Shown: one piece after another, positions 9,001-12,000 of the stretch
Layout: every line of letters begins with the position of its first letter
Position numbering within the stretch: the first letter of the stretch is position 1
Virus record (IMG/VR): IMGVR_UViG_2703718804_000003
DNA: 30,285 nt
Direction: 5' to 3' (one strand)
Source of the DNA: a virus
Lineage: Duplodnaviria > Heunggongvirae > Uroviricota > Caudoviricetes
Made by a program: the position numbers

Positions 9001-12000
9001 TCGGGCGAACATATGAGAGTTTGTGTTTGATTTTCACACGGTTCTCATCAAACGGTTCGATTTCCAGGTTGAGCGAGACCTTACCTTTGGTTTTCGTGTT
9101 CATCACACCGGAAGCGACTTCACTGAGAACTGCGCCGATTTTGGTTTCAAATACGCCGCCGTCCAGCTCCCCGATAAATGCCTGCACATCAGTACTGCGT
9201 TCGCTAGCCATTTGCTGCTCCTCATCATATCGACCCTGCAAGGTCGGTTGGTTTCTCCACAAAACAGAGAAGAACACCTGCGGTGCAGCCGCCCGGATGG
9301 ATTGGGTTATGAGCCCGTCGTCCGGTGATGCTCTTCTCTGTTTTGTAAAAAGAGCGGTACCAGCCGGAAGCAAGTGTACAAACTGGTACCGCCAGGACTA
9401 CACACAGCATAAAGTTGTGGTGCCGGGTGCCTCCCGGTGCCTGGCGAAGGTTGCACACCAGACGGGTGGGTATCCACAGAAGGTCGACTGTCAGCCTCAA
9501 CCTTAACCCGCGTGCGCTGAGCCGCATTCACCACAACGCTAAGGATTCTCTTTGGTTGAAAATACTTGGCTGTTATGTGCCTGTCTTTTCACCACTTCAG
9601 GCTCGGTGGTATCTTGGTGTTTTCATATAGCCAAGAAGGAAATAGTTATGACCAAAGAAGAAAAAATTCTTTATTTATTCCAACTATCGGTTAAGACTCA
9701 CACTGCATATCAGACTGCTGCCATGACATCAGATAAAAATTACAGTACGTCAGAAAACCCGATAGACGACATAAGCAAGCTTTACGATAAGTTCGAAGCA
9801 CTACTCGATAAAAAGTTTGCTGAGGCTGGGCTTGAGTGATTGTTGAATAATCGACAAAACCCAACTTAAATTTTCGTCAGTGGGCTCGATGCCATGTGCG
9901 GTGAGCTCACTTTTCAAAACTCCAAGTAATTCAGAGCTAATTTTCAATATATCTGCTTGATTTCTAACTATTCCCACTTTTTCCTCCCTTGGTCTACGCG
10001 CGGTCATGTTTTACGCCCAAACGACTTCACAGTTATTGTTTAAAATCTGGACTTTCATTTCATACACCTGCTTTAACATGAGTGCCTAGTGGCACAACAT
10101 GACTCAACGAATCATCCTGGACTTCATATGCCCCAGGCGGCTACTTCGTGGGTGTCCTGCCTGTTCGTTGTCTTAACACCTTTAAGTTGTAGTTTAGTTG
10201 TGGTTTTGAATGTTGTCAACAACTTTATGTGGTTTGAACGAGTAGCCAAGGAGTGCAAGGATTATCAAAAAAAGGAGGTTGTATGGAAGACGCGCTTTAC
10301 GCTTTTAATTACACACAGAACCGGGACAAGTTATTTGCTAACTTGATTAGCATCATTGATGGAATCATTGCAGATGGAGTTGTCCGTGAAGAGGAGGTTC
10401 TTTACTTAGATACATGGTTACTTGAAGCAAAGCAGATTATCAATAATGGAGTTATAAAAAGTCTATCTGCTCGGGTGTCGGATATTCTTGCGGATGGAAT
10501 AATCACATCAGAAGAACGTGATGACCTTAAAAATAGCCTTCTCCAAATACAGAGGGAAATTCTTGATATCCCTGAAATTTATTTTTACTCCAAGGATGTA
10601 GATGTCCATTTACTTAATGGACTATGTAAAGGATTAATTGCTGATCGGAACTTAACTCAAGAAGAAATAAGATATCTTAATTGGTGGCTTGAGCAAAATG
10701 GAGCTTTGAAGAACAACTACCCAGGAAAAAAACTTTATGCACTTGTAAAGGAAATTCTTAAAGATGGTGTTATTACTGAAGATGAGAGTTTAACTCTACA
10801 TAAGGCATTAGTAGACTTCACAGGATGTGACTTGGAAAGTGGGGTGGTGGATGGTTTGGCGACCAGGCTGCCTATTGATGTAGGGGCTTCGATAGAGTTA
10901 GAGGGTAAAACCTATTGTCTTACAGGCACTTTTGTTGCAGGAAAGAGAGCCGTAGTTGAAAATTTGATTAAAAATGCTGGTGGGAACATCAGTAGTGGAA
11001 TTACTCAAAAGTTGGATTTTTTAGTAATTGGGACGCTTTCCTCCCGTGATTGGAAATTCTCTAGTCACGGAAGGAAGATCGAAAAGGCTATATCTTATAG
11101 GGATGATAATGGTGCAAAACTTAAAATTATTTCTGAAGAAATGCTTTTCGATGCATTACCAAGTTCGCGATGACCAGAATACCCTACCTATAACATGAAT
11201 TCTGGCTCGTCTATCTTCAAAGGTGAGTATTTCATCTGGGTACTCATCTTTGTTGAAGCTTCTAAGAATCAAGCCACCGTCAGGTAAGTTGATAAGTATT
11301 TTAACCCTTAGCAATATACCATCTCGTACGGCATAAAGATCGCCATCACGAATAGGAACGGTTTGAGAAATATCAACGGCAACAAGATCTCCATTATTGA
11401 GAACCGGTAATAAACTGTTCCCCCATATTTGTACGATCTTGGCATTAGATGCACATACGCCAGATTTTCTCAAATCTGCTCTTCTTAACGGAAACCAGTC
11501 AATAGCTGATTCAACTATTTCAGCCAGACATCCGTTACCTGCCGATAACTCGACATCTAAAACAGGAATGTTTACGAAAATATCGGGGTCTAATGCGGTG
11601 CTTTCTGCTTCTTTTACAACAAGATCAGGTATGGATGCGTTGTCTTCAATACCAAGTTGTAACCACTTTTGTGATACACCTAAAACTTTTGCAATTTCTT
11701 TAATTTTGCGCGGTTGTAGAGTTTCGCCATTCTCTATTTTTGCTACAGATTGTTGTGAAAGTCCAATTTTTTCAGCTAGTTGAGCTTGGCTCATGCCAGC
11801 TTTCTCTCTACCTATCTTTAATCGTTCTGCCAGTGTTTTCACAACATATCCCTCTCTTTTTTGATGAGGTTACAACTTTATGTTTTAGCTTTCCAACACC
11901 TAAAAGTTGTGGTAAAAGTTGTTAATGTTGTATTCTTGCAGCTCGTAACAACTTAACTACCAAAAAAGGAGAAAGCTATGACACCTGAGCAATTAGCCTT

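Follow-up and report, generated by a model that had tools for sequence, protein, structure and literature searches.

The window analysed here (the whole 30,285-nucleotide stretch of IMG/VR virus record IMGVR_UViG_2703718804_000003) is a Stx1a-converting lambdoid prophage of Escherichia coli. Between its leftward operator and promoter (oL/pL) and the cI repressor gene lies a plus-strand gene for a 296-amino-acid protein with a BRCT domain, hereafter the BRCT gene. A preliminary description of the DNA had placed the gene on the opposite strand to cI, with a strong Shine-Dalgarno sequence of its own and a 3' end overlapping cI by 18 base pairs (bp), all of which proved correct. The gene and its immediate setting comprise the following features:

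10170 to 12237, no strand assigned: immunity cassette with oL/pL, the BRCT gene, cI, oR and cro, delimited by a block swap relative to phage SfII
10273 to 10278, plus strand: Shine-Dalgarno sequence AGGAGG, read from the sequence and conserved in all aligned loci
10283 to 11173, plus strand: coding sequence of the 296-amino-acid BRCT protein, stop codon included, with a full-length match to phrog_3989 (E 1.6e-128)
10304 to 10576, plus strand: acidic helical module 1 (residues 8 to 98, isoelectric point (pI) 4.3), with ADGVVREEE from residue 30 and ADGIITSEE from residue 70
10577 to 10840, plus strand: acidic helical module 2 (residues 99 to 186), with ADRNLTQEE from residue 120 and KDGVITEDE from residue 160
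10898 to 11152, plus strand: BRCT domain (residues 206 to 290), basic (pI 9.4), with T214-G215 and K265 invariant, R222 nearly so, and a family-specific SRDW insertion
11156 to 11842, minus strand: cI repressor (HTH_3 and Peptidase_S24 domains), convergent with the BRCT gene, the two overlapping by 18 bp at 11156 to 11173

The open reading frame (ORF) at 10283 to 11173 is a real, conserved gene. It begins with ATG, at the same start as in the RefSeq annotation of a genome that is 100% identical here, in which the product is named "BRCT domain-containing protein". A GTG at 10253 was considered as an upstream start and ruled out, since 10283 is the start indicated by conservation and by the ribosome-binding site, and the one used in RefSeq. 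The gene is under strong purifying selection, with a ratio of nonsynonymous to synonymous substitution rates (dN/dS) of 0.055 against a 91%-identical homologue. A full-library search (E<=1e-3) recovered 2866 clusters of the protein family at 50% identity, 1599 of them with E<=1e-10.

The window and phage SfII share 99.4% identity as far as position 10169 and 89% from 12238 onward. In place of the oL-BRCT gene-cI-oR-cro segment SfII carries an unrelated cassette with cI only, and the edges of the swap fall exactly at 10170 and 12237. The BRCT gene is an integral, co-inherited part of this exchangeable immunity cassette and is exchanged with it as one block. The preliminary description had called it a moron, a misleading term for a gene that is co-inherited with the immunity cassette and whose promoter appears to be wired to a cI operator (see below). 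The BRCT gene (38% GC) and cI (40%) are both much AT-richer than the window as a whole (47.8% GC).

The position next to cI, noted at the outset, recurs among homologues in other temperate phages. A convergent cI homologue is present in all 80 of the IMG/VR loci examined (BRCT protein identity 68-100%), the 3' ends of the two genes overlap by 6-18 bp in 79 of these, and cI identity declines in step with that of the BRCT protein. Among 5426 complete E. coli genomes, 47 have an intact BRCT gene and 48 have this cI, and the pair is also found in prophages of Citrobacter, Serratia, Klebsiella, Salmonella, Providencia and others. The BRCT gene is dispensable for keeping cI, because a prophage of E. 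coli RMDEC465 (locus 2676-2990) retains an intact, 83%-identical cI despite an internal deletion of the BRCT gene. The deletion corresponds to window positions 10316-11030 and leaves the first ~30 nucleotides (nt) and the last ~140 nt of the gene.

Operator-like sites and predicted promoters flanking the gene

The regulatory elements on either side of the gene are listed below; the BRCT-gene promoter, pRM and the role of the hairpin as a terminator are putative.

10176 to 10190, no strand assigned: operator-like site ACACCTTTAAGTTGT over the -10/start region of pL, a repeat in common with oR at 11895-11913 and nearly invariant in 13 divergent loci
10191 to 10219, minus strand: pL, with -35 TTGACA (10219-10214), a 17-nt spacer and -10 TAAACT (10196-10191), from a consensus scan (10/12 match)
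10219 to 10233, no strand assigned: 15-bp operator-like site ACAACTTTATGTGGT between the -35 elements of pL and the BRCT promoter, its first 12 bases identical to oR 11872-11883, within an invariant alignment block
10234 to 10262, plus strand: putative BRCT-gene promoter, with -35 TTGAAC (10234-10239), a 17-nt spacer, TG at 10254-10255 and -10 AAGGAT (10257-10262), from a phylogenetic footprint
11225 to 11255, plus strand: 8-bp hairpin (GAGTATTT / GGGTACTC in the window, GAGTACTT in most relatives) followed by U-rich TCTTTGTT, in the 3' coding region of cI
11867 to 11896, minus strand: putative pRM, with -35 TTGGAA, an 18-nt spacer and -10 TAACCT, the -35 abutting an operator at 11896-11910; visible in the alignment only

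Together with the scan for pL, the operator-like repeats at 10175-10234, which recur in the cI-cro region (oR, 11871-11931), bear out the location of the gene between oL/pL and cI given in the preliminary description. The bottom-strand -35 of pL (TGTCAA) is invariant across the aligned loci. A simple sigma-70 consensus scan found no plus-strand promoter, and the BRCT promoter became visible only by comparative alignment, for which the upstream regions of 13 divergent loci were aligned and 93 loci were then scanned. The promoter block is present in 86 of the 93, in the form of 31 distinct sequences; 28 of these 31 have the TG and 28 have AAGGAT. Across loci, a -35-like TTGAnn stands directly after the operator, followed by a spacer that is fixed at 17 nt while its positions 2-12 are almost random. 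This pattern is what an extended -10 sigma-70 promoter would leave; transcription is predicted to start near 10269, which puts the centre of the operator near -43.

At the putative pRM, TTGGA is conserved in 13 loci, as are T1, A2 and T6 of the -10. This promoter and that of the BRCT gene have equal geometry, each with its -35 abutting an operator in the same orientation. Activation by cI at a pRM-type promoter has an established precedent in lambda OR2/PRM, and by analogy with that precedent cI would permit or activate the BRCT promoter in lysogens; repression is the alternative. Downstream, the hairpin at 11225-11255 has a z-score of -3.5 in the window and is conserved in 12 loci, with one covarying pair only. 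It may, with low confidence, terminate the BRCT mRNA, or it may reflect coding constraint on cI; the terminator reading is weak because the cI codons EYPDE(I/V)L place a constraint of their own on this stretch.

Protein architecture and relatives

The protein consists of two conserved parts, an acidic tandem of helical modules and a basic BRCT domain of the LigA/RFC1 class, joined by a disordered linker (residues 187-193). Pfam PF00533 (BRCT) matches residues 206-290 with 29.0 bits against a gathering cutoff of 21.3, and likewise matches 28 of 28 diverse relatives; the domain has the beta-alpha-beta-beta-alpha-beta-alpha succession of the BRCT fold. Its best sequence and fold matches are the BRCT domains of LigA, RFC1 p140 and PARP1, which belong to the DNA-binding class, and a Foldseek search against BFVD viral structures returned ligase-type BRCT domains only. 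The LigA-type BRCT domain of the preliminary description is upheld by these matches.

Within the family, T214, G215 and K265 are invariant, and R222 and the SRDW insertion, which stands before GRKIEKA, are invariant or nearly so. The T-G pair and the arginine align to residues of the RFC1 BRCT domain, where we take the T-G, R and K residues to form the 5'-phosphate pocket. The lysine of GRKIEKA (the K265 region) is presumably equivalent to the GSK..KA lysine of LigA and RFC1. Judged by these pocket residues, with the equivalence of the lysine presumed, the domain is predicted to fall in the DNA/phosphate-binding class represented by RFC1 and LigA.

LigA differs in having NTase, OB, Zn-finger and HhH domains, none of which was found in the window protein, and in lacking the SRDW insertion specific to this family. 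A reading of the protein as an NAD-dependent ligase was ruled out, since the LigA match covers the last ~50 model positions with 28.5 bits against a cutoff of 444. The NCBIfam matches are to the BRCT ends of LigA and "epsilon-like exonuclease" models and lie far under the cutoffs. The name "NAD-dependent DNA ligase" in some database records is a mis-annotation, because the NTase, OB, Zn and HhH domains are absent. As the preliminary description had it, there is no nuclease, ATPase or other catalytic domain in the 296-residue protein, at least none detected in Pfam, NCBIfam, PADLOC or fold searches.

The N-terminal half is acidic (pI 4.5) and all-helical (pLDDT 89 when modelled alone with AlphaFold). 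It is a tandem duplication of a four-helix module of ~88 amino acids (hhalign of module 1 against module 2: probability 99.7%, E 6e-27), and each module is built of two related hairpins (E about 1e-6), hence an A-B-A-B pattern of four ADG-x-x-T-x-E-E motifs. Of the four tandem acidic repeats of ~35 residues described earlier, the four motifs stand, and the spacing is corrected to 40-50 residues (starts at 30, 70, 120 and 160). The AlphaFold model of the whole protein, built with 48 sequences, has a mean pLDDT of 83.5. Short forms of ~210 amino acids within the family retain only module 2 and the BRCT domain.

The repeats had also been likened to TerB-type modules. Three lines of testing did not establish homology to TerB. 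In Pfam (PF05099) the window protein gives no match at E<=1 and the matches among relatives (7 of 28) are all sub-threshold (best 23.1 bits against a cutoff of 24.4); an hhalign comparison with the TerB structure 2jxu is no better than one with shuffled sequence. The two proteins have helical scaffolds on which an acidic hairpin motif, (A/S)DG-x-h-x-x-x-E (h, hydrophobic), recurs, a likeness that is motif-level and sub-threshold.

The family is already catalogued yet uncharacterised, as phrog_3989 (PHROGs, function unknown), which the window protein matches over its full length, as "BRCT domain-containing protein", and as orf2 of Vibrio phage K139. The preliminary description did not recognise the architecture as a described system, which is right in that no published function was found and wrong in that the family is not wholly unrecognised: it is phrog_3989, it includes K139 orf2, and it matches part of the PADLOC candidate PDC-S48. 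We found no prior description of the strict pairing with cI in a cassette, the promoter abutting an operator, the two-module duplication or the link to PDC-S48.

The product of orf2 (kp3) of K139/Kappa is a homologue with 32% identity over 95% of the length (E 9e-38). It shares with the window protein the two modules and the BRCT domain, the place beside cI in a lysogeny module and the name "BRCT domain-containing protein". However, it is co-directional with cI in a P2-like phage, within a cI-orf2-glo-int operon downstream of a mapped lysogenic promoter and start site, whereas the window gene is convergent with cI and has its own promoter. No assigned function for orf2 was found in the records or papers searched. 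An Aeromonas caviae P2-like prophage carries tandem paralogues, in the co-directional order cI, a 206-amino-acid one-module form, a 296-amino-acid two-module form and int. In Pseudomonas phages (e.g., Marin) a one-module short form directly follows cI in the same direction, and in two other lambdoid prophages (48-49% identity) the gene is convergent to cI with one to three genes between them. The locus at 3929-4986 of Sulfurimonas phage SNW-1 has a short form annotated "DNA polymerase", which is divergent from cII and lies at the expected position of the repressor. A thermonuclease gene begins 3 nt after this short form, and no cI is annotated nearby.

Overall, the family occupies the immunity slot of at least five unrelated lineages of temperate phages: enterobacterial and Oceanimonas-type lambdoids, Vibrio/Aeromonas P2-like phages, Pseudomonas siphophages and the Sulfurimonas phage. 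Among 50,697 phage records, the gene is found only in K139-like, Pseudomonas and Sulfurimonas phages, all of which are temperate or have a lysogeny-type gene order; none is known to be virulent.

Other relatives are linked to candidate defence genes. The PDC-S48 profile of PADLOC combines a DEDDh exonuclease, a helical module and a BRCT domain, and the window protein matches positions 239-377 of its 411, i.e., the C-terminal 40%, having one acidic module and the BRCT domain in common with it. The exonuclease is the only catalytic part of PDC-S48, and the window protein lacks it (no RNase_T match in Pfam, NCBIfam or PADLOC); relatives fused to a DEDDh (RNase_T) domain match the whole profile. 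PDC-S48 is a candidate system only, for which the literature search found no paper. An RNase_T gene precedes one relative, in the company of SMC-like and helicase genes, others adjoin AbiE or SMC/JetC-like genes, and others again have a LigA-like HhH-BRCT tail fused to them. Most of the family consists of stand-alone forms, which also occur in chromosomes. A fixed nuclease partner for the stand-alone forms was considered and ruled out, an adjacent RNase_T gene being present in 1 of 80 species-level loci.

Possible functions of the BRCT protein

There is good support for the architecture, the membership in the cassette and the promoter footprint, but not for the function. The BRCT protein is probably an accessory factor without enzymatic activity that belongs to the immunity cassette of the prophage. 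Lambda rexAB, P22 sieB, 933W stk and BTP1 bstA are immunity-region genes that are expressed in lysogens and have repeatedly proved to be phage-exclusion systems. The window gene resembles rexAB in occupying the equivalent slot between oL/pL and cI within an exchangeable immunity region. It differs from genes of this type in that it is a single gene with its own promoter, without a membrane or enzymatic effector, and is on the strand opposite to cI, so that the co-transcription with cI from pRM seen in rexAB-type genes does not apply. No sequence relation to RexA/RexB-type genes was found, PADLOC having returned PDC-S48 only.

The reading that we tentatively put first, though at somewhat less than even chances, is that the BRCT protein is a DNA-end binder that is coupled to cI, expressed in lysogens and interferes with the DNA of superinfecting phages. 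It is favoured because the gene occupies this slot, is restricted in the phage genome collection to phages that are temperate or have their genes in a lysogeny-type order, and has homologues that lie in operons with cI; because the phosphate pocket is intact; and because relatives fused to an exonuclease constitute a defence candidate. Bound at the operator at 10219-10233, cI would repress pL and at the same time permit or activate the BRCT promoter, and the protein would therefore be made in lysogens; distant homologues would reach lysogenic expression by co-transcription with cI. Both the promoter-operator geometry and the operon position of homologues suggest such lysogenic transcription. 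The BRCT pocket might bind 5'-phosphorylated DNA termini or nicks, which would be exposed by incoming or replicating phage DNA and absent from the integrated prophage. The acidic modules could be a regulatory or partner-binding part that masks the BRCT domain, binds a metal or ligand, or recruits a host nuclease. The outcome would be that circularisation, replication or repair of the superinfecting phage DNA is disturbed, giving exclusion without a built-in effector.

Several observations weigh against such a role. In approximately 40 species of Pseudohongiellaceae/SAR86 (metagenome-assembled genomes), an orthologue with ~33% identity keeps the same chromosomal neighbours, namely genes for a thiolase, UGSC, a small membrane protein, an ABA4-like protein and Band_7/NfeD, with no phage or defence genes among them, and one relative directly follows nrdAB. 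These contexts point to a general cellular role; the chromosomal clade in particular weakens the case for dedicated defence, more than any other observation. In K139, exclusion is credited in the record to glo rather than to orf2. The protein has no effector domain of its own, and an exonuclease gene is its neighbour in only 1 of the 80 species-level loci. The proposed control of the BRCT promoter by cI, and the direction of that control, is read from geometry, and the proposed binding of DNA ends from residue conservation together with the biochemistry of RFC1 and LigA. Literature searches on the function of the family (BRCT with prophage, defence or anti-phage; TerB-BRCT; K139 orf2) found nothing.

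A bolder version of the exclusion reading, which we consider doubtful, is that the gene represents a new class of repressor-coupled immunity factor. Here cI, when bound to the outermost operator of oL, would turn on a promoter of the pRM type, from which a DNA-end sensor without an effector is expressed. On meeting the termini or nicks of an incoming phage genome, the sensor would keep that genome from becoming established, either through occlusion or with the help of a recruited host nuclease. Joined to an exonuclease, this module would be the stand-alone candidate PDC-S48.

The strict physical and evolutionary coupling to an S24-type cI, seen in every phage lineage in which the gene was found, also fits a modulator of the lysis-lysogeny switch. 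Such a protein would sense DNA damage through its BRCT domain, or a metal or ligand through its acidic modules, and act on cI, RecA or S24 self-cleavage. A promoter wired to the cI operator and overlapping convergent 3' ends, which force antisense interplay, would suit this role, and the chromosomal orthologues suggest a function in DNA metabolism or stress over one in defence. However, linkage alone can yield co-divergence, one E. coli prophage has an intact cI with the BRCT gene deleted, and SfII-type cassettes function without such a gene. We regard a role in induction as unlikely.

The chromosomal relatives also bear on a further, rather improbable alternative, in which phages have borrowed a cellular BRCT scaffold that has no part in conflicts between phages. 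Its role would be in lysogenic conversion, where it would aid the host in DNA repair or in tolerating stress, or else it would help phage and host replication. Vertically conserved orthologues in ~40 species with a fixed chromosomal context, the relative directly after nrdAB and the fusions to LigA-like HhH-BRCT tails are consistent with a borrowed cellular scaffold. It accords less well with the absence of the gene from virulent phages and its confinement to lysogeny modules in the phage collection, with the defence-island-like contexts of some relatives, and with the exonuclease-fused relatives being a PADLOC defence candidate.

An operator touching a -35 can repress as well as activate, which raises the equally improbable possibility of an early lytic gene. 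In this case cI would repress the promoter in lysogens; after induction, rightward antisense transcription would help to silence cI, and the protein would serve lytic DNA metabolism. The convergent, overlapping arrangement with no strong terminator between the genes would allow this, yet the homologues of K139, Aeromonas and Pseudomonas lie in one transcription unit with cI, the weak -10 (AAGGAT) and the operator near -43 fit an activated promoter better than a repressed one, and virulent phages lack the gene. Finally, it is very improbable that the protein, which matches only the non-catalytic C-terminal 40% of PDC-S48, is an anti-defence decoy, i.e., an exonuclease-less copy of PDC-S48-like proteins that protects the phage by competing for a DNA substrate or partner, given that the gene is found in lysogeny modules and not with the early anti-defence genes, that stand-alone forms are the family majority and also chromosomal, and that no PDC-S48 partner is known in E. 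coli hosts.

If DNA-end binding and exclusion by the BRCT protein were true, it would be a defence factor without an enzymatic effector, and bacteria would be seen to use the BRCT phosphate pocket in proteins other than ligases. Were the protein to tune induction instead, the cI switch of Shiga-toxin prophages, in which induction governs toxin release, would gain a new input. The predicted cI-dependent promoter provides a simple and directly testable hypothesis.

Other features of the prophage

The window is 100% identical to E. coli ARS-C301 across ~23 kb except for one insertion/deletion, at 6209-6249, where ARS-C301 has ~177 additional bases. The toxin genes are stx1A (19775/19784-20731) and stx1B (20741-21010), directly followed by the small RNA STnc100 (21089-21302, 194 bits). 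The first ORF downstream of pL encodes 68 amino acids (9801 to 10007, minus strand); nothing is annotated in its place in the RefSeq record that matches the window. At its 3' end it overlaps a convergent 63-amino-acid ORF (9648 to 9839, plus strand; WP_000159356), and SfII has an ORF at the equivalent position.

Rfam models identified isrK (13163-13239) and a C4 antisense RNA (13264-13351) on the plus strand, inside an ORF at 12803 to 13954. Given these two RNAs at 13163-13351, the prophage seems to carry a P1 c4/ant-like antirepressor control module besides cI. In RefSeq the ORF is annotated as a 383-amino-acid "Rha family" protein; the true start of the Rha coding sequence is probably near 13412.

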